Assembly: GCA_937995745.1 (NCBI GenBank)
Contig: CALKIU010000069.1
Coordinates: forward strand, 33,337 to 97,336
Direction: 5' to 3'
Source: an uncultured Bacillaceae bacterium
Lineage (GTDB): Bacteria; Bacillota; Bacilli; Bacillales; Cytobacillaceae
Length of the DNA stretch: 64,000 bases
This document shows positions 527 through 62,762 of the stretch, in pieces (within the stretch, counting starts at the first letter, position 1; every line of letters begins with the position of its first letter). Position numbers and translations under genes: made by a program. Below the pieces are notes generated by a model. That model saw only the letters and a list, made by a program, of their open reading frames with translations, was not told where the DNA came from and searched no databases.

Positions 527-1638
527 TTTTTCTTTTTCACATCCTTCCAGTCATTGGCGATTTCCTCCAAGGCCGGCCATTTGCTTGCGTCCGTCCTGAT
601 CATTTCTTCGAGCATTTCCGCCGTTTCTTCATTTAAAAATGATTCGGGGTCATAAACGACATCTTTTACGTTTTTATAAAATTCATCCGGCAGGGACAAA
701 TCGATGAGCAGCAAGTCGTACAATTCTTTGCTCAAGGGGTTTGCTTCGTGGTAGGCCTTGATAAGCTCCCGGAGCGTTTCCGGATCCCAATGCCCGGCAT
801 CGATCATCATCCCGGATATAAATTTTCTTAAATCGCGGATGGGAAGGTCGTATGCCACGCCGTCCAAGTCGATGATCCAGACGCTGCCTTTCCCCAATTG
901 ACCGTTTGACCAGCCGTAATCCTGATGGGCCAGCCCCCAATGAAGATCGCCGTACCTTGCCAATTCGCGGTATTTTGAGTTTTGCAATCTTTCCAGGGCT
1001 TTTTGCGCCTGTTTTTCAAAATATTCGACTGCTCTCAACATAGATTCGCTTGCCGGCAGGTCGTGATAGGCCTGGGCGATATGGCGGAACCAATCCATCT
1101 TTAATAAAATTTTCCGATATTTTTTCTCCCAGTTTCCCACTCTTGAAGCGCTTTCCGCATTGGACGGAGGCCGGTATCCTTTGCTTAGACGATGGAATTC
1201 CCCGAGTCCGTAACAGAGTTTTTTCGCGCCGTCTAAATCTTTCGGGGCGGGAGTGAGCGATTCTATCCACTCTGCTACGAACCAAATTTTTCCTCCTGCG
1301 AGAACGCATTTTTCCCCCGTGTTCGTTTTGACGATCGCAGGAACCCGGGCTTTTTGTTGGCACAAATATTCCTGCGCTCCGAGACTGAATATGCTTCTTG
1401 GCGGCCTTCTGTGGAGAAGTTTGAGGCTTTTCGGTCCTTCGCTCGTTTCGATTTTCCAAATAGCCCCTCCCTTTTTCGGTTTTGTCGCTGCCACATCCAT
1501 GCAGCGGACGGAAAAGTCATATTGCTTTAAAACAGCCAATGCAATAAATTGGATATACTCAGGCACGTGCAATTTATCCGCTTCTGTTGTTTCGTTTGTT
1601 TCCTCCGTCATCCACGGCATGATTTCCAGGGTTTTCAT
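523..1638 (-). CDS. CotS-family spore coat protein (protein-kinase/aminoglycoside phosphotransferase fold)
   Basis: ORF track 523..1695; start moved to ATG 1638, which has GGAGGG 6 nt upstream. Motifs: HQDYGWSNG (HxDxxxxN catalytic loop) and IIDLDG (metal-binding Asp). Confidence 0.65.
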   Translation of the reverse strand: MKTLEIMPWMTEETNETTEADKLHVPEYIQFIALAVLKQYDFSVRCMDVAATKPKKGGAIWKIETSEGPKSLKLLHRRPPRSIFSLGAQEYLCQQKARVPAIVKTNTGEKCVLAGGKIWFVAEWIESLTPAPKDLDGAKKLCYGLGEFHRLSKGYRPPSNAESASRVGNWEKKYRKILLKMDWFRHIAQAYHDLPASESMLRAVEYFEKQAQKALERLQNSKYRELARYGDLHWGLAHQDYGWSNGQLGKGSVWIIDLDGVAYDLPIRDLRKFISGMMIDAGHWDPETLRELIKAYHEANPLSKELYDLLLIDLSLPDEFYKNVKDVVYDPESFLNEETAEMLEEMIRTDASKWPALEEIANDWKDVKKKK

Positions 1639-1865
1639 GCATTTCCCTCCGTTTTTTGTTTCTACAGGTTCTGTGCAAAAGCTTGTTTTTAACAAGTTAT
1701 GTCATTTGCAACTGTTTGGTATAGGACAAGTCTCTAAATTCCGCAAAATAAAAAACTAGTTGCCGCGGCAAAATTCCTATACAAGAAAACCGGGATGACA
1801 TACATATGCAGTATGTCCGCAAAAAACAAGAGAAGGGAACGGTTTTTAAACACGGAGGTGGAAAC

Positions 1866-2858
1866 ATGTCAAGCGGTCAAGAAGGTTCTGCTTTTCTAGT
1901 CACGGGCTGCGTCGGATTCATCGGATTTCATATGGCAAACCGGTTGCTTGCGGAAGGAAACGAAGTGTTTGGTATCGACAACTTGAATGATTATTATGAC
2001 GTGCGGCTGAAAAGAGACCGGCTCGCAATCTTACAACGAAATCCCCGCTTTTCATTTTTTAAAGGTTCCGTGGAAAATAAGGAGCTTTTGGAACACGTTT
2101 TCTCGTTGCGGCCGTTTGAGACGGTGATTCATCTGGCGGCTCAGGCCGGCGTTCGGTACAGTTTGGAACAGCCGCAACAATATGTGCAAGCAAATGTGGC
2201 AGGATTTTTAAATATTTTGGAATGTTGCCGCAAGCGACAAACGAAACATTTAATATATGCGTCATCCAGTTCTGTTTACGGAAATAACAGGAATACTCCC
2301 TTTGCGGAAACCGACTGCACGGAAAAGCCGGTCAGTATGTATGCTGTGTCCAAAAAAGCAAATGAATTGATGGCTTACGCATATTGCCACTTGTACAAAC
2401 TTCCTGCGACGGGTTTGCGGTTTTTTACTGTATACGGCCCTTGGGGGCGCCCGGACATGGCTGTTTTCAAATTTACCGGGGCCATTTTGAAGGGCGAGCC
2501 CATTAAAGTTTATAATCAAGGAAACATGAAGCGGGATTTCACTTATATTGATGATGTGATTGAATCAATATCCAGGCTGATTAAAAAAGGTCCTCCGGCA
2601 GGGACGATACCCTATAAAATTTATAATGTCGGCAATCACAAACCTGTCGAATTGAATGATTTAATAGCCTGTCTGGAAAAAGAACTGGGAAGAAAGGCGA
2701 AGAAAATCTTTTTGCCTTTGCAGCCCGGAGATGTATTAGAAACTTTTGCGAGTGTACAAGAATTGGAGCAAGCGATCAACTATCGACCGTCCGTTTCGAT
2801 AGAGGAAGGAATTAAGAGATTCGCAGCTTGGTACAAAAGTTATTACAAAATCTCTTAG
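1866..2858 (+). CDS. NAD-dependent nucleotide-sugar epimerase (UDP-glucuronate 4-epimerase-like SDR)
   Basis: Contains VTGCVGFIGFH (GxxGxxG) and the YAVSK (YxxxK) catalytic motif; ends ...AAWYKSYY as in Cap1J/WbnF-type epimerases. Start set at ATG 1866 behind GGAGGTGG. Confidence 0.7.
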   Translation: MSSGQEGSAFLVTGCVGFIGFHMANRLLAEGNEVFGIDNLNDYYDVRLKRDRLAILQRNPRFSFFKGSVENKELLEHVFSLRPFETVIHLAAQAGVRYSLEQPQQYVQANVAGFLNILECCRKRQTKHLIYASSSSVYGNNRNTPFAETDCTEKPVSMYAVSKKANELMAYAYCHLYKLPATGLRFFTVYGPWGRPDMAVFKFTGAILKGEPIKVYNQGNMKRDFTYIDDVIESISRLIKKGPPAGTIPYKIYNVGNHKPVELNDLIACLEKELGRKAKKIFLPLQPGDVLETFASVQELEQAINYRPSVSIEEGIKRFAAWYKSYYKIS

Positions 2859-2888
2859 GCGGGAACTTTGTGCCGCAAAAGGAAAAAA

Positions 2889-2919
2889 GGCCGGAACGGT
2901 TAAAGGAATCCGGCTTTTT
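2889..2919 (+). terminator. Putative intrinsic terminator after the epimerase gene
   Basis: GGCCGGA...TCCGGC hairpin followed by TTTTT. Confidence 0.4.
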
Positions 2920-3281
2920 GTATGGAGAAAAATTTCAGAGAATAGGCATAAACGACTATCATCTAAATGATAGAAGTTATAGTCTGAAAAGATTTTATTA
3001 TTATAAAAATAAGTAAATTCTACCGTTAAAGAGAAAATAATGTTAAAGAATTCCTTATTTTTCGACAAAATATTTGCTCGTGAGGGAAAATTTGTGTCAT
3101 TTCTGTATGACTTGAGGTTCATAATTTCTAAAGGGATTCTTTTAAAATTAGACGAATTATTATACAATAATGTTGAGTTGATATTTGTTGAAACATGACG
3201 AATATCATAACTCTTTTAAATTTTTTATTTATTGTGATGAAAACGACCTAGTTCGATGGTAAAGGGGTGAAAAACTGAAAA

Positions 3282-4799
3282 ATGCAGGAGTTGATACTGT
3301 CTGTTTTATCCTTGATCATCCTTGTGCCGCTTATCTATTTTCTTCCTTTGGGACTCACTAACAAAGGAAAAGCATTTATTGTTGGAGCAGCTTTTTTATT
3401 GGCAAATATAGGATTATTGACACAGCATATCCTGCCGACATGGCTGATATGGACGATTCTCGCGCTGCTCGTCTTTTTGGTTGCTTACGTGATGCAGAAC
3501 AGAATGAGTGAAGTGTTGTTCGCCGGAATGTCCGAGGACAGCGGTACGAAAGATTCGCTCTATGATCAAAATTTGGATGCCGTTGATGAAAGAGACCGCT
3601 TTTATAAGCGATATGATTCACACCGCGAGGAATCCGTCCCCGCTAGCGGGACAATGGAAGACATCAGGACGGCGTCTTTACCCGAACTCGAAGAGGAAGA
3701 CTCTGCTGCTTCGGACGAACATCCCCGGGAAGAAAGCGCTGAAATGGAAGAGATTGCACTTAAAGAATCTGATGATCAGCTTATTATTGAAAAAAGCGAA
3801 GCTCTCGGCGAACTTCCCGGTCAAGATTTGGCAGAGACACCTGAGGATGAACAATTGTTGGAGCCCGGTGAAGGCAGGGATGAGGATGCCGCTGGCGAGC
3901 CGTCCTATCTCGGCAAGATAGAAAGGCTTATGGAGGATGATGATACAGAAGCGGAAGAAACTGTTGAACTTACGGCCATCCAAGAGGAGTCCATGGTTGA
4001 AGATTTGTCAACGGAAGAATTGCTAGAAGCGGCTTCACCTGCAGAATCGCCGGAGCTTGAGGAAACCGGTGACTTGAGCGGCGAATTGTTCGGTGCTATG
4101 GATGAATACGCTTCTGAATCAGAGATGTTGCATGAAGTCGAAGAGGAAGACACTCATTTGCCTGAAGAAAACGAAATCTTCATCCAAGAAGATGAGGCAA
4201 AGGATGGCGGGGATGAACAGCAGGCGGATGAAGAGATCGCCGAAATAGCTGATTTGCCGGTAGACGAGGAAGAATGGCAAGCTTCGGTTTCGGAACTGTT
4301 TGGAGAAACCGTCCTGCAGGTTGAAGAGGAACAACTGCAAGAACAGCCGGACGGCGGGGATACAGAGCTTGAGATTTTAATCGGTGAAGAAGAAGAAGTT
4401 CTGCATGACGAACCTGCGCAAGAGGCCCATCCGCAACAGTTGCCAACAGAAGATACCAACCTGGAAGACGGAGATGAAGAAGAAGCTGGGCTTGAAGAAC
4501 AGCGGCACGCTTTGCAACAGCAAATGCTTCATTTGTTGGCTTCCCAATTGGAATTGCAAAGAGATCGGCTGCCCGCGCATCAGTACGAAAGCCTTATCAA
4601 GGAACATTTGGTCGACGATCTGCCTCCTCAGGACTATTACACATTTGCCAGCATGCTCATTGAGCACTATATAAGGAATAAAGAATTAGGAAAATTAGAG
4701 GAATTATTGTGGAATTTGCGTGAAAAATTCACGGAATTCCCTGTTATAATGATGGAAATTCAATATTTATATGAACAATATTGTAAAAATATATTATAA
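3282..4799 (+). CDS. Hypothetical membrane-anchored, extremely acidic protein
   Basis: The N-terminal ~70 aa form 2-3 hydrophobic helices. The central ~330 aa are Glu/Asp-rich low complexity. The C-terminal ~90 aa are non-repetitive (LPAHQYESLIKEHLVDD...YLYEQYCKNIL). No family recognised. Confidence 0.5.
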   Translation: MQELILSVLSLIILVPLIYFLPLGLTNKGKAFIVGAAFLLANIGLLTQHILPTWLIWTILALLVFLVAYVMQNRMSEVLFAGMSEDSGTKDSLYDQNLDAVDERDRFYKRYDSHREESVPASGTMEDIRTASLPELEEEDSAASDEHPREESAEMEEIALKESDDQLIIEKSEALGELPGQDLAETPEDEQLLEPGEGRDEDAAGEPSYLGKIERLMEDDDTEAEETVELTAIQEESMVEDLSTEELLEAASPAESPELEETGDLSGELFGAMDEYASESEMLHEVEEEDTHLPEENEIFIQEDEAKDGGDEQQADEEIAEIADLPVDEEEWQASVSELFGETVLQVEEEQLQEQPDGGDTELEILIGEEEEVLHDEPAQEAHPQQLPTEDTNLEDGDEEEAGLEEQRHALQQQMLHLLASQLELQRDRLPAHQYESLIKEHLVDDLPPQDYYTFASMLIEHYIRNKELGKLEELLWNLREKFTEFPVIMMEIQYLYEQYCKNIL

Positions 4800-4878
4800 A
4801 ATTACCAGTCCATGTTAAAATGATGTATCATAAGTAATAGTCTTATCGAACTTATAGATTAGGTGTGGTGAATGTGAG

Positions 4879-5697
4879 ATGAAGAAAAGTGTCCAGATTA
4901 ACGGTTTGCCGATCATCAGCATTGCTGACGGCAACCAAATCGGCAAGGTTAAATCCCTTGTCATTAATCCTGATAAAGGATCTGTTGATTTTTTAACCAT
5001 CGAACATGAAGATTTTCAAGTCAGCGTTAAAGCCATTCCCTTTAAAAAAATCATCGGAATCGGTGAATATGCTGTCACTGTCGAAAGTGAAAATGCCGTT
5101 ATCGATTTAAATGAAATTCCCATCGCCAATCAGCTCGTCAACAAAAAGATTAAGATTACCGAGACGAAAGTGATGACCAGAAAAGGAGAACTGATCGGAG
5201 AAGTTCAGGAGTATTTTGTCGAAGATGAAACGGGACAAATTCTCGGAATGGAACTGAAAGTGGATGAAAAGATTGTCTATTTGGCATCTGATTCTGTCGT
5301 CACTTTCGGCAAAGACATCATCATCGTAAATGAAGATGCGGCCTCCCGCTTTTTGAGCTCGCCGGAAGAGTTGGAAGGGGAGCCTGTTCCGGTCGAAAAT
5401 GAAGATGCCGAACCGGCTGAAACAGCGGAAGAATCCGAACCGCTTTTTCGTGAAGAGCCTGCAGTAGTAAGTGTGCCGGAAACTGCCGAAGAAGCGGACG
5501 AGGATGATGATGTAAAAGCTTTAAAAGAAAAACAAATCGAATTGTTGACAGGAAAAACATTGACAAAAAACATCTACGGTAAAAACGGGGAAATTCTTCT
5601 TGCCGAAGGCACGGTTTTGACCCGTGAACATATTGAAAAAGCGCAAAAAGAAGGCCCGAGTGTTGTCGTTGAGATTTCCATGAATGTGAAAGCTTAG
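4879..5697 (+). CDS. PRC-barrel domain protein (two PRC barrels, acidic linker, C-terminal domain)
   Basis: NGLPIISIADGNQIGKVKSLVINPDKGSVDFLTIE and TRKGELIGEVQEYFVEDETGQILGMEL resemble YlmC/YmxH-type PRC barrels. Confidence 0.55.
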   Translation: MKKSVQINGLPIISIADGNQIGKVKSLVINPDKGSVDFLTIEHEDFQVSVKAIPFKKIIGIGEYAVTVESENAVIDLNEIPIANQLVNKKIKITETKVMTRKGELIGEVQEYFVEDETGQILGMELKVDEKIVYLASDSVVTFGKDIIIVNEDAASRFLSSPEELEGEPVPVENEDAEPAETAEESEPLFREEPAVVSVPETAEEADEDDDVKALKEKQIELLTGKTLTKNIYGKNGEILLAEGTVLTREHIEKAQKEGPSVVVEISMNVKA

Positions 5698-16880: not shown

Positions 16881-17411
16881 ATGATAAAAGATTTTCCGGA
16901 AGATGAAAGACCAAGGGAAAGATTTGTCAAATACGGCCCTGAAAGCCTTTCCAACCATGAATTGCTTGCCATTTTGCTGCGGACAGGAACAAAAGATGAA
17001 TCTGTCCTTCAATTGGCCAACAGGCTGTTAAAATCTTTCGACGGCTTGAGAATGTTGAAGGAAGCTACACTGGATGAAATCACGGCCATCAAAGGAATCG
17101 GAAAAGCGAAAGCGATTCAGATTTTGGCGGCCATTGAAATCGGCAGGAGAATAGCCAATCTCAATTACAATGAACGCTATGTTATTCGTTCTCCGGAGGA
17201 TGGGGCCAATTACGTCATGAACGATATGAGATTTCTGTCCCAGGAACATTTCGTTTGCCTTTACCTCAATACGAAGAATCAAGTTCTCCACAAAAAAACC
17301 GTTTTTATCGGCAGCTTAAACGCCTCCATTGTACATCCCCGCGAAGTTTTTAAAGAAGCGTTGAAACGTTCTGCAGCCTCCGTCATCTGTTTCCACAATC
17401 ACCCGTCAGGC
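16881..17411 (+). CDS. radC: RadC (JAMM/MPN+ family), exon 1 of 2
   Basis: MIKDFPEDERPRERFVKYGPESLSNHELLAILLRTGTKDESVLQLA...ICFHNHPSG. The frame then enters intron sequence (GTGCG...) and hits a stop at 17448..17450. Confidence 0.8.
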
Positions 17412-17632
17412 GTGCGCCTGCAAGGTGTGTCATTTCAGCGATTTTTATAAATCTGGAATTCCTTACAATATTCCATGGTCAGCATCTTACCTCCGGGGGA
17501 AACCTTGAGGGGGGAACATAGCATGATGTCAAAAGGAGAAGAGACGACGAAGCTGTCTGGTCGAATCGCTTCTTCAGGCCAAGTGGTGTATGGTAAAGGC
17601 TATACTGCTTGAATCCCAGACGGTTGAGCGTT

Positions 17633-17637
17633 GGGTG
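17633..17637 (+). other. Candidate EBS2 of the intron
   Basis: GGGTG at intron nt 222-226 is complementary to exon positions -12..-8 (CACCC). Confidence 0.4.
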
Positions 17638-17689
17638 CGCCGTTGCCTATGACAGCTGACAGGCAATGTGGACAAAATGGGAGATGCAG

Positions 17690-17696
17690 CGCCTGA
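17690..17696 (+). other. Candidate delta + EBS1 of the intron
   Basis: C-GCCTGA at intron nt 279-285 is complementary to exon -6..-1 (TCAGGC) plus the first nt of exon 2 (G). Confidence 0.5.
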
Positions 17697-17894
17697 GCAC
17701 TTCCATAGTAAGGTTTGTCCATCAGGCCTCCGTCCGGAGGAAACCGTCGAAAAGGATACCTAACCACCACGCATCTGAAATGGCGCATAATGCAGGGATT
17801 ACCTTCGTGCAATGGCCGTTTTAATGGTTTTCGGCGATTGCATATGGTAACGGAGTCTCCATAGTACCCGACGTTTGCCTGTAATGGGTTTAGC

Positions 17895-19313
17895 ATGGGG
17901 AAGGGAGACAGGCTGACGAATCCGGCAAAGGAAGTCATGAATATGGCGAAAAATCCGTTCAAGCAGCTTGAAACTATAAAAATTGCCGCGCAAAAAGGGA
18001 GACGGATCACCGATTGTTTTCGTCTGTTATATAAAGAAGAACTTTGGCTCAAAGCATTGGAACGTTTACAATTGCCTAAAAGCGGTTCTTATCGGACGGA
18101 AGCCGCTTGTTTGGAGGAAATCAGGCGATCGATCGAGAATTTAAGAAATGGCGCGTATCGCCGCACCTTTTTTGCTTCCCCCATGAAAGGAAATGAGGAT
18201 GTAAAACCGTTTCTTAAAGAATTTCTCCTTTTGGAGGCGATGAGATTCATTCTCGAAGCGGTGTTTGCGCACCGGATATCCTCCGCAAAACATATGGAGG
18301 ATTCAAGAGCGCCTTTTGCTGCCTTACTCAGAGTAAAGAGAACTTTTGGCGCTTACACCTGGTGCATAAAAGGCGAAATCGCCTCCGGTATTTGCAGCCG
18401 CCAGTTATTGCAGTTCGTAGGGGCAAAAATTGACGACAGGCGCTTTCTGTATATAATCAAGAAAGTCTTGGCATCGGGCATTCTCAAACACAGACGGGCC
18501 CGTTCATTCCGCGGATTATTGGAGCGGATTTGCTTTTCGGAATTGGATCACTTTGTGCAAATATGCGCAGAGAACTATTTTCGCCGGAAAGAGCATTTCG
18601 GAAAAATAAATTATATCCGATCCGGACGTGAATTCGTCATCGGCTTGTCCTGTACAAAACAGTTGGCGCGCAGCCTGCTCGCGGATTTGGAGATATTCCT
18701 GTATGAACAGCTTGGCTTCAGTAAAAGTGAAAGCCGGGTACAGCTCTTTCATTTGGAAAAACGTGTCCCTTTTCTCGGCTACGAATTTTGCCGCTTGAAG
18801 CAAAGGAAAAGCGGGCACAGCCCGGAAAGAGCGCGGTTAAAACCGGCCGGAGAACTTGCGGGACCGACAGACCGTAAAATTATTTTACTCATACCGGACC
18901 GGAAAATAAGGGAGTTTGCCCGAAAAAAGGGATATGGCCTGTTGGAAAACGGCGTCATTTCCCATCGGAAAAAATTAATCCATAAGACGGAAGAGGAAAT
19001 TTTGGCTCTTTATAATAAAGAACTAAAAAATTTTGCCCAATACTACCGGTTGGCGGCAAATATCCATCATTTAGACAAGCTTTTTTATATTGCCCGGGGA
19101 AGCTTTTTTAAAACGGTCGCGGCAAAGCGAAAAAGCTCTGTTGCTAAAACAGCGGAACATTTGCGGAAAAAAGGATTGCGGATCGTCAGCCGGCGAGCCG
19201 TATACTTCGAAAGGAGTACGTACGGTTCTGAGGGAGGGGAGGAAACCTGCCCTTTATCCGGCAAGGCGCCTTATCCCGACCCTACGATCCGACACCGAGC
19301 AGAGAGGATATAG
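17895..19313 (+). CDS. Intron-encoded protein: degenerate reverse transcriptase with retained maturase (X/thumb) domain, no DNA-binding/endonuclease domain
   Basis: Collinear by eye with LtrA-type IEPs. The YADD position reads [17 protein letters not shown] reads KPFLKE, and GDIKGCFD reads GEIASGIC. The X domain is kept ([45 protein letters not shown]). The start may be ATG 17937 or 17943. The stop lies in exon 2. Confidence 0.7.
19195..19228 (+). ncRNA. Group II intron domain V
   Basis: 34 nt with the AGC triad, an AC bulge and a GAAA tetraloop; differs from my recollection of Ll.LtrB domain V only in the upper stem and loop. Confidence 0.8.
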
Positions 19314-19426
19314 ATGTGACGAAGAGACTTGCAGAATCAGGAAAAATTCTCGGCATTGAACTGCTGGATCACGTCATTATCGGAGAAAACAAATATGTCA
19401 GTTTAAAGGAAAAAGGCTATATATAA
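19286..19426 (+). CDS. radC: RadC, exon 2 of 2
   Basis: [46 protein letters not shown], the conserved RadC C-terminus completing the JAMM motif. Phase 0 with exon 1. Confidence 0.8.
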
Positions 19427-27984: not shown

Positions 27985-28110
27985 TGTTATCTTCGTAGCA
28001 CCCGTGCTACAACCGCTCGGTACGGGTTACAAGTTCTCCTTTTGCATGCGCGGTTTTTTATCGCGCCGTTCAAAAGGATGACACCCGGTCTGGCGAGTCT
28101 TAGTAATTAA
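27985..28110 (+). ncRNA. Probable ribosomal protein L21 leader
   Basis: A ~125-nt structured untranslated leader between the promoter and the rplU RBS, in the position of the Firmicute L21 leader. Hairpins visible by eye: GTAGCACCCGTGCTAC and GCGCGGTTTTTTATCGCGC. Not checked against a covariance model. Confidence 0.4.
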
Positions 28111-33000: not shown

Positions 33001-33540
33001 TTATTCTTGATCTTCTTTTACAAGGAAGCCCGCTGATTTAAGGGCGCGGACCGCTTGTTCGAGAGCTTCTTCCGAGGGGGCGGATATCGTGTGGAGATGG
33101 ATGCCGTTCGTCAGTTCAGAAAGAAGAGATGAGCCGGTTTCTTTAATTTGCTGCATGAATTGTTTCACTTCCATGCGGTTGGAAACCATGATGGAAGCGG
33201 TTATTTCTCCGTAGACGGAATGTTCCACGGTCACATTCTGGACAGTGACACCGTGATCCACCAACAGATTCAATTCTGCTTCCGTCTCTTCCGGTGTATG
33301 TTGGCAGACAATTGTTTTTTCAAACTCCGGACCGCTCTTTCTTATATAAAGATAGCCCTGGCTGGTGGCGATAATCGGTTCCCCTTTTGCCCTTAGCAGG
33401 GAAATGTCGCCTACAATCACCTGTCTGCTAACGTTCGTTTTTTCCGCCATTTCTCTTCCGGTGACCGGACCCCCGCTGCTTTTTAAAAGCCGCAAAATAA
33501 ATTTTCTTCTTTCATCGGCGGGCATCTTTTTTGACTCCAT
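33001..33540 (-). CDS. niaR: NAD-biosynthesis repressor NiaR (YrxA; HTH + 3H domain)
   Basis: ERRKFILRLLKSSGGPVTGREMAEKTNVSRQVIVGDISLLRAKGEPIIATSQGY plus a 3H domain with conserved His residues. Confidence 0.8.
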   Translation of the reverse strand: MESKKMPADERRKFILRLLKSSGGPVTGREMAEKTNVSRQVIVGDISLLRAKGEPIIATSQGYLYIRKSGPEFEKTIVCQHTPEETEAELNLLVDHGVTVQNVTVEHSVYGEITASIMVSNRMEVKQFMQQIKETGSSLLSELTNGIHLHTISAPSEEALEQAVRALKSAGFLVKEDQE

Positions 33541-62494: not shown

Positions 62495-62762
62495 AAAAGG
62501 ACAACCGTTGATGGAGAAAAGTAGTTAAGAAGCATGTGGAAAGAGAGGAAATGCCGCGGCTGAAAGCATTTCTCCACAATGCCTTAACGAACGACACTCC
62601 GGAGGTTTCATTCCGAAAGAGCCGTATCGAGGTTTTAGTAGGGATGAACGTAGACAGGCGTTAACTGTAAAAGTGGAAGTTTACCTGTTAAACTTCAATT
62701 AGGGTGGCACCACGGGAATATCAACTCTCGTCCCTTGTATTCAAGGGGGAGGGTTTTTTTGT
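62495..62762 (+). promoter_or_regulatory. T-box riboswitch leader (specifier loop reads GAACGACACUCC; GAC Asp and CAC His overlap)
   Basis: AGTA box, AGAGAG box, distal GGCTGAAAG. T-box sequence AATTAGGGTGGCACCACGGG at ~62698..62717. Terminator hairpin CCCTTG tattc AAGGGGGAGGG followed by T7 at 62726..62762. Confidence 0.85.

Follow-up and report, generated by a model that had tools for sequence, protein, structure and literature searches.

A group II intron within radC of an uncultured Bacillaceae bacterium encodes a degenerate reverse transcriptase probably retained as a splicing cofactor

Results

A complete group II intron interrupts radC

The 64,000-nucleotide stretch analyzed here (the window; positions 33,337 to 97,336 of contig CALKIU010000069.1, assembly GCA_937995745.1) comes from an uncultured Bacillaceae bacterium, to which a Robertmurraya metagenome-assembled genome (MAG) is closest among the named members of the collection. 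Within it, a complete group II intron of 1874 nucleotides splits the radC gene within the stretch that encodes the JAB/MPN metal-binding motif of RadC, after the HNHPSG codons and before those of DPTPS, and encodes a protein in which the reverse transcriptase (RT) motifs are lost and the maturase domain, domain X, is kept (Table 1). The gene has maf upstream and mreB downstream, the usual arrangement in Bacillota, and the G+C content of the intron is the same as that of its flanks.

Exon 1 by itself matches only positions 1-77 of the 121 positions of the Pfam RadC profile, and conceptual splicing of position 17411 to 19286 generates a 223-residue protein that matches positions 1-120 with 170 bits. 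The product of exon 2 differs at one of 46 residues from that of a related locus (L005; 45/46 identical), despite the saturation of radC synonymous sites between the two loci, and the ratio of nonsynonymous to synonymous substitution rates (dN/dS) of radC in the clade of the window is 0.02. Because splicing restores a complete RadC domain in a gene under such strong constraint, removal of the intron appears to be required; the same two observations rule out that radC is a pseudogene.

Table 1. Features of the interrupted radC gene and its group II intron, in window coordinates.
Feature	Coordinates	Strand	Description
radC exon 1	16881-17411	+	MIKDFPEDE...ICFHNHPSG; ends in the middle of the JAB/MPN motif; Pfam UPF0758_N and RadC
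Intron-binding site 2 (IBS2)	17400-17405	+	CACCCG, near the end of exon 1
Intron-binding site 1 (IBS1)	17406-17411	+	TCAGGC; with IBS2 forms the final 12 nucleotides of exon 1
Group II intron, probable ML/IIA type	17412-19285	+	5' GUGCGCC ... CCCUAC 3'; boundaries common to 27 related loci
Exon-binding site 2 (EBS2)	17632-17637	+	UGGGUG; pairs with IBS2 6/6, including one G-U
delta	17690	+	C; pairs with G+1 of exon 2
Exon-binding site 1 (EBS1)	17691-17696	+	GCCUGA, in a domain I hairpin loop; pairs with IBS1 6/6
Domain IVa-like helix, Shine-Dalgarno (AAAGGAAG) and start codon	17853-17945	+	Presumed high-affinity binding site of the intron-encoded protein
Intron-encoded protein	17943-19313	+	456 residues; dead RT-like domain and X/thumb, without DNA-binding and endonuclease domains
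RT1-RT5 remnants	18204-18644	+	Alignments to LtrA and to intact radC-intron proteins
KPFLKE remnant	18204-18221	+	RT1 region
GEIASGIC remnant	18372-18395	+	RT3 region
RT4 remnant	18507-18554	+	16 residues; alignment
RT5 remnant	18612-18644	+	11 residues; alignment
X/thumb (maturase) domain	18876-19163	+	Pfam Intron_maturas2
Read-through tail	19191-19313	+	Last ~40 codons, crossing domains V and VI and 28 nucleotides of exon 2; TAG at 19311-19313
Domain V	19195-19228	+	34 nucleotides, GAGCCGUAUACUUCGAAAGGAGUACGUACGGUUC; AGC triad, 2-nucleotide bulge; Rfam RF00029
Domain VI	19231-19285	+	Bulged branch-point A at 19279, 7 nucleotides before the 3' splice site
radC exon 2	19286-19426	+	Ends KEKGYI*

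The intron-encoded protein lacks the RT active site and retains domain X

An initial annotation of the region described an open reading frame (ORF) at 17895-19313, judged by eye to be collinear with IEPs resembling LtrA, the protein of the Lactococcus lactis intron Ll.LtrB, and to be a dead RT with a preserved thumb/X region and no DNA-binding (D) or endonuclease (En) domain. The ORF, of 472 codons, is present on the + strand, 17895 being merely the first in-frame ATG; the likely start of the intron-encoded protein (IEP) is the ATG at 17943 (MAKNPF..), 8 nucleotides after a Shine-Dalgarno sequence conserved in all relatives. The database protein P0001, which is identical to the IEP, begins at this same ATG and is found on 80 contigs. 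A phmmer search of Protein Data Bank (PDB) sequences recovers LtrA at 1.2e-28, with the RT5 and RT3 blocks in the register originally proposed. In RT5, YIRSGREF is aligned with YVRYADDF of LtrA (LtrA block LKYVRYADDFIIS), such that YADD has become SGRE, both catalytic Asp residues are gone, and no intact YADD emerges from the alignment; in RT3, GEIAS..GIC stands opposite GDIKGcfdNID, with Glu in place of the Asp. Two further blocks had been read as substituted, RPLGIP as KPFLKE and the PQGG block as a degenerate version of itself. Their loss is borne out and the substitutions are not, as alignment with intact relatives in MAFFT has RPLG deleted from RT1 (KKRPLGVPNFKDKL segment) and the SGTPQGG part deleted from RT4, where only a short remnant aligns with SPLLANIYLHEFDLF. 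An RT4a insert of about 60 residues is absent, as is the whole of the D and En region, and the alignment stops after domain X.

Profile searches agree with these alignments. The only Pfam match in the IEP is to Intron_maturas2 (E 9e-11, residues 328-423), with no match to RVT_1, even at E<=1, or to HNH; at that RVT_1 threshold none of nine RT-dead family members and all four intact relatives are matched. The NCBIfam equivalog TIGR04416 scores the IEP at 27.3 bits, far under its cutoff of 300, compared with 163 bits for a less decayed Halobacillus relative (L013) and 301 bits for the intact protein P0008, and it has no match (E<=0.01) in the Oceanobacillus-type protein (L021). The X/thumb region is 43% identical to that of an intact relative, and the combination of a kept domain X with lost RT motifs is what identifies a maturase-only protein. 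An AlphaFold2 model (predicted local distance difference test (pLDDT) 75.8, predicted template modeling score (pTM) 0.71) finds LtrA as its best PDB match in Foldseek (8h2h_D, E 5e-14), followed by other group II RT/maturases, and an LtrA-like scaffold of fingers, palm and thumb is thus predicted to persist without an active site. With the active site, D and En all gone, the protein would be expected neither to reverse transcribe nor to cut DNA, and the intron not to home.

The C-terminal end of the ORF is unusual in that the reading frame crosses domains V and VI and enters exon 2, where its stop codon lies out of frame with radC. In the intact relatives the stop is a UGA formed at the domain V tetraloop region, 79 nucleotides before the intron end, and in other RT-dead versions it lies 96-233 nucleotides before the intron end. 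In the window, L011 and the L005/L012 pair, a different frame carries the ORF through both domains to a stop 28-107 nucleotides into exon 2. The tail is not conserved as protein, because the frame after domain V differs among the window, L011 and L005, and its residues 417-458 are disordered in the AlphaFold2 model (pLDDT ~30); on these grounds we reject a functional C-terminal extension over domains V and VI, and take the tail to have arisen incidentally when the D and En domains were deleted. Since the ORF ends in exon 2, its stop codon exists only on the unspliced precursor, and the excised intron RNA would have none.

The ribozyme and its exon-recognition sequences are intact and covary

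The intron has the 5' terminus GUGCG (17412-17416) and a 3' AY terminus, and the same termini are found in 27 related loci. Domains V and VI (19193-19285) match Rfam model RF00029 (Intron_gpII) with 60 bits against a cutoff of 40. Domain V is unchanged across 24 introns apart from compensatory changes in its distal stem, and in domain VI compensatory changes preserve the helix, with an A at -7 in all introns. A permissive-threshold Rfam search of 17300-19400 returned, besides domains V and VI, only a weak plastid D5 match and no domain I-IV family; the structural class therefore cannot be assigned from Rfam. The intron is provisionally grouped with the ML/IIA type on LtrA being the best PDB match and on the AI2M-like HNH domain (PF21368) carried by the intact relatives P0008, P0012 and P0013.

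Across the 13 RT-dead introns, 97.2% of alignment cells are paired in the predicted secondary structure, and 60 of 135 base pairs show compensatory changes. Shuffled alignments gave 28.6 +/- 3.1 such pairs, with none of 500 reaching the observed number, and a control in which pairing partners were slid gave 11-18. The structure of domains I-IV was predicted with RNAalifold, without a helix-by-helix assignment to the canonical IIA model. The domain IVa-like helix (columns 503-557 of alignment A3) is conserved with compensatory changes, and all 24 introns carry an almost unchanged GAGUCAUGAAUAUG block around the Shine-Dalgarno sequence and start codon. By analogy with LtrA and its domain IVa site, the IEP probably binds here.

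Covariation extends to the contacts with the exons. EBS2/IBS2 occurs in a compensated form in L014 and L017 (CAUCC/GGAUG versus CACCC/GGGUG), and EBS1/IBS1 in other RT-dead introns includes the covarying pairs TCCGGT/ACCGGA, TCTGGA/TCCGGA and TCTGGT/ATCAGA, the shifts in EBS1 accompanying synonymous changes of the Ser-Gly codons in exon 1. Eight of the 13 RT-dead introns pair 6/6 at the EBS1/IBS1 loop, and most match their own exon.

Introns with intact IEPs (among L015, L024, L025 and L026-L033) frequently mismatch the resident exon at one or two positions of EBS1/IBS1 (pairing 5/6), and some carry an EBS1 of ..CCGCU, suited to a Ser codon, AGC, not used by the host. Mismatch in the intact introns and match in the RT-dead ones would fit recent horizontal homing of the former and long co-evolution of the latter with their exons.

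Mobile-type and RT-dead relatives occupy the same radC site

Searching a set of 5.8 billion proteins recovered 13 homologues, nine of which have the maturase domain only (33-100% identity) and four of which have RVT_1; in all retrieved genomic contexts the gene lies within radC, with maf and mreB as neighbors. Scanning a single genome of each species yielded 22 named Bacillaceae loci, and a script comparison places the intron at the identical radC position, with the same termini, in all 22. The 27 related loci that share the intron boundaries all have the exon junction HNHPSG|DPxPS.

These introns are of two kinds. Those with an intact YADD are ~2.51-2.54 kb long, encode IEPs of up to 627 residues, and are found in the Bacillus cereus group, Cytobacillus, Ornithinibacillus, Virgibacillus, Aquibacillus, Alteribacillus, Ectobacillus, Ureibacillus and B. 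ndiopicus. RT-dead introns are 1.83-2.23 kb long and, besides the window, are found in Robertmurraya, B. coreaensis, Priestia taiwanensis, Halobacillus karajensis, Terrihalobacillus insolitus, an Oceanobacillus sp. and several MAGs. The RT-dead versions, at least 13 in number, form about seven deeply diverged groups, and relatives of the window IEP have GT, GI, GN or IT at the RT3 position and YGDH, SDLE, EFDH or YKEE in RT5.

A neighbor-joining (NJ) tree places the RT-dead IEPs in a single clade nested among the intact ones with 99% bootstrap support, in a ladder of growing branch lengths that resembles long-branch attraction. The boundaries of the deletions in RT1, RT3, RT4 and RT4a vary between RT-dead groups, and at depth the similarity of the IEPs is incongruent with that of their hosts; the window and the L018 group share 91% identity in MreB but 37% in domain X. 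For these reasons the tree does not decide between a single loss of RT function and several.

Degeneration is also seen outside the RT-dead group. The IEPs of L025, L028, L029 and L031 (Alteribacillus, Virgibacillus, Aquibacillus and Ectobacillus) have otherwise intact RT motifs and a frameshifted or truncated endonuclease, and the Aquibacillus IEP has YAED in place of YADD. Decay is thus graded, and judging from their sequences these four look like intermediate stages.

Several radC genes hold more than one intron. In Terrihalobacillus insolitus (L014), an intron at 2647-3381 lies between the codons for ..SIVHPREV and YREAVK.., 21 codons upstream of the intron with the RT-dead IEP (3445-5484); it is 735 nucleotides long, has its own domain V at 3287-3320, and contains no ORF longer than 54 codons. 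It might be served in trans by the dead-RT maturase of its neighbor, an organelle-like arrangement. In the B. cereus group, L024 and L033 have an intron of 2.46-2.48 kb at an upstream radC site, HPREV|FKEA (894-3372 and 916-3372, respectively), whose longest frame of 605-624 residues includes an IEP with intact YADD, and a second intact-IEP intron at HNHPSG|DP. This double occupancy indicates that radC has two homing sites.

The intron is vertically inherited and its ORF is under purifying selection

Each of the 13 RT-dead introns has one open ORF of about 400-480 codons. By the Nei-Gojobori method the RT-dead IEPs have an overall dN/dS of 0.24-0.35, with 0.15-0.43 in the RT-like part and 0.12-0.33 in domain X; the intact IEPs have 0.06-0.09, and radC and mreB lie mostly at 0.01-0.05. 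Constraint is therefore relaxed yet plainly there, and it reaches beyond domain X.

The synonymous divergence (dS) of the IEPs follows that of the host genes clade by clade: 0.81 against 0.53 between the window and L011, 1.68 against 1.5-2.3 between the window and L005, and 0.28-0.36 against 0.22-0.31 among L018, L020 and L023. Together with the shared radC site, this is the pattern predicted for vertical inheritance of the intron. The element is being maintained and is not decaying.

Discussion

We interpret the window element, with a confidence of roughly 85%, as an immobilised ML/IIA-type group II intron that has become fixed in a chromosomal radC gene and whose RT-dead IEP is kept as a splicing cofactor. 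Its ancestor would have encoded a full RT-X-D-En protein, of the type still intact at the same radC site in other Bacillaceae. The IEP would then have lost the polymerase active site (the RT3 Asp to Glu, YADD to SGRE, and RPLG, PQGG and RT4a by deletion) together with its DNA-binding and endonuclease domains, and would have retained the N-terminal RT0/fingers scaffold and the X/thumb domain. Most likely it binds the domain IVa helix at its own ribosome-binding site as well as the ribozyme core, and so aids folding of the RNA for splicing, which would join HNHPSG to DPTPS and restore the metal-binding motif of RadC. The intron would be kept because radC needs its removal, and the protein because it assists in that removal. 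Both the lack of RT activity and the maturase-assisted splicing proposed for the cell are deduced from sequence.

This is in essence what the initial annotation had envisaged: an immobilised intron with an intact ribozyme and exon-binding sites, kept under selection for splicing only in the manner of the organellar MatK and MatR. Domains V and VI and the EBS/IBS pairings are indeed intact and covarying, and motif loss, dN/dS and vertical inheritance lend the proposal further support. The X-versus-RT comparison of dN/dS that it called for gives purifying selection in both parts, so that domain X is not the only part retained.

Several points weigh against this interpretation. The RT-dead IEPs have a dN/dS three- to fourfold higher than the intact ones, which shows relaxed constraint; the read-through ORF would set translation against ribozyme folding on one and the same molecule; a second, intact IEP could possibly act in trans from outside the window; and residual metal binding is conceivable, as Glu occupies the place of the RT3 Asp and that of the second Asp in YADD. 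The higher dN/dS, a C-terminal region that is remodelled and has lost its stop codon so that the ORF enters exon 2, and the fact that the inspectable portion of the genome is 64 kb could all be accommodated if the ORF were a dispensable, decaying relic in an intron that splices by itself or with the help of the intact IEP of another group II intron. We regard this as improbable, as the ORF has stayed open in 13 independent RT-dead lineages, several pairs of which have saturated synonymous sites, both the RT-like and the X part have a dN/dS far lower than 1, and conservation extends to the domain IVa helix, the Shine-Dalgarno sequence and the start codon. Moreover, the window contains no further IEP and no further domain V, and IIA introns generally depend on their own maturase at physiological Mg2+.

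Recruitment of the IEP beyond its own intron, either as a general splicing factor resembling MatK or as a regulator of RadC through conditional splicing, seems marginally less probable still. The ORF-less intron of T. insolitus would need a trans-acting factor, and the continued constraint on the RT-like region could be taken to reflect an added role, but the window has a single intron, nothing in the sequence indicates a new domain or partner, and constraint on an RT-like scaffold is accounted for by the known RNA-binding role of that scaffold in LtrA. Least credible of all is that the IEP remains a polymerase with a non-canonical active site, in which Glu would serve in RT3 and in place of the second Asp of YADD. 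Two acidic residues do lie near the canonical positions (GEI and SGRE) and the palm fold is predicted to persist; these Glu residues, however, vary within the family, deletions have removed the segments that bind dNTPs (RPLG and PQGG), and changes of Asp to Glu in the YxDD box inactivate retroviral RTs. The evidence thus favors an immobilised intron whose RT-dead protein assists its splicing.

As a rule, group II introns of bacteria behave as selfish retroelements and stay out of conserved genes. Introns that only splice, with a maturase whose RT is dead, are characteristic of organelles and are supposed to represent a stage on the way to spliceosomal introns. MatK, of the chloroplast trnK intron, and MatR, of intron 4 of plant mitochondrial nad1, resemble the window IEP as IIA-lineage proteins that have lost RT motifs and kept domain X, that act in splicing only (as proposed for the window IEP), and whose introns are vertically inherited in conserved genes. 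They differ in being organellar, and MatK serves several introns in trans together with nuclear-encoded factors, whereas the window element belongs to a free-living bacterium and has a single cognate intron within the 64 kb. Ll.LtrB and LtrA, the closest solved structure, share with the window intron the IIA-type recognition by EBS1, EBS2 and delta, as well as two features presumed for the window: a domain IVa binding site that takes in the start codon and Shine-Dalgarno sequence, and dependence on a maturase. LtrA, however, has an intact YADD, D and En and is mobile, and the window IEP has neither an active site nor D/En. In the B. cereus group and other Bacillaceae, radC introns with intact IEPs have the same insertion site and the same ribozyme; their IEPs are 35-44% identical to that of the window (43-44% in the C-terminal half), with a homologous N-terminus (MAKNPFxQL) and domain X. 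They are longer, encode YADD and HNH, and often have a mismatched EBS1, in contrast to the 1.87-kb, RT-dead window intron that matches its exon perfectly.

The closest precedent is O.i.I2 of Oceanobacillus iheyensis, whose primary description is that of Simon et al. 2008 (RNA 14:1704). Like the window intron, whose IEP is a probable member of the ML class, it has an ML-class IEP without YADD, an open ORF, exons encoding RadC and a Bacillaceae host, and it has been interpreted as encoding a protein with maturase function only. Degeneration of the IEP is rare in bacteria, O.i.I2 being the only known case (Zimmerly and Semper 2015, PMC4424553); its ML-class IEP lacks YADD and other RT motifs, its ORF is open, and its exons encode RadC (PMC4424553). 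The B. cereus group had earlier been noted to carry a group II intron in a gene of the radC family (Tourasse and Kolsto 2008, PMC2504315). The remark of the initial annotation that such an element would be unusual on a bacterial chromosome thus holds as to rarity, but there is a precedent in the very same gene. Oceanobacillus sp. 1P07AA (L021), with an RT-dead intron at the exact radC site of the window, serves here as a proxy for O.i.I2, and from the published description and this proxy, not from the O.i.I2 sequence itself, we infer that the two introns are orthologous. They are nevertheless distinct, in that the window IEP is only ~25-33% identical to the Oceanobacillus-type IEP, has a maturase Pfam match, of which there is none on record for L021 and two of its three retrieved relatives, and is encoded by an ORF that runs through domains V and VI into exon 2. 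When homologues of the Oceanobacillus-type IEP were searched for, four 'hypothetical proteins' were all that came back, none of them from O. iheyensis.

The window element is accordingly one of a kind already described, and in the same gene, although the kind is very sparsely documented. What may be new is the breadth of the RT-dead family, the presence of mobile, YADD-intact relatives at the same site in other genera, and the extension of the ORF, in this subclade, across domains V and VI as far as exon 2. In the literature following the 2008 and 2015 papers we found no account of RT-dead bacterial IEPs or of a radC intron family in Bacillaceae, which is weak evidence, as the search did not reach most subscription journals. 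O.i.I2 is not a one-off: at least 13 RT-dead versions persist at this site in Bacillaceae and bear clear marks of having been selected for splicing, and mobile relatives still occupy it in other genera. With hosts that can be cultured and are amenable to genetics, the family lends itself to studying how a mobile intron turns into an immobile one dependent on its host, and which parts of the RT scaffold a maturase needs.

Tentatively, and with the balance of likelihood still against it, the Bacillaceae radC introns could be arranged as a domestication series, leading from mobile introns with RT-X-D-En proteins, through those with a truncated endonuclease, to vertically inherited RT-dead introns such as that of the window, and finally to the ORF-less intron of T. 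insolitus served in trans, like the targets of MatK, by a dead-RT maturase. On the same reading, in the subclade of the window the stop codon in exon 2 could couple synthesis of the maturase to the amount of unspliced radC mRNA.

We note some minor features of the loci compared. In Robertmurraya korlensis (L018), radC exon 1 has only 69 open codons upstream of the intron and no second intron was detected in the gene; the short frame may reflect a frameshift or an assembly error. Elsewhere in the window, both on the + strand, are two ordinary cis-regulators of Bacillota, a ribosomal protein L21 leader at 28001-28110 (51 bits) and a T-box leader at 62499-62738 (141 bits).

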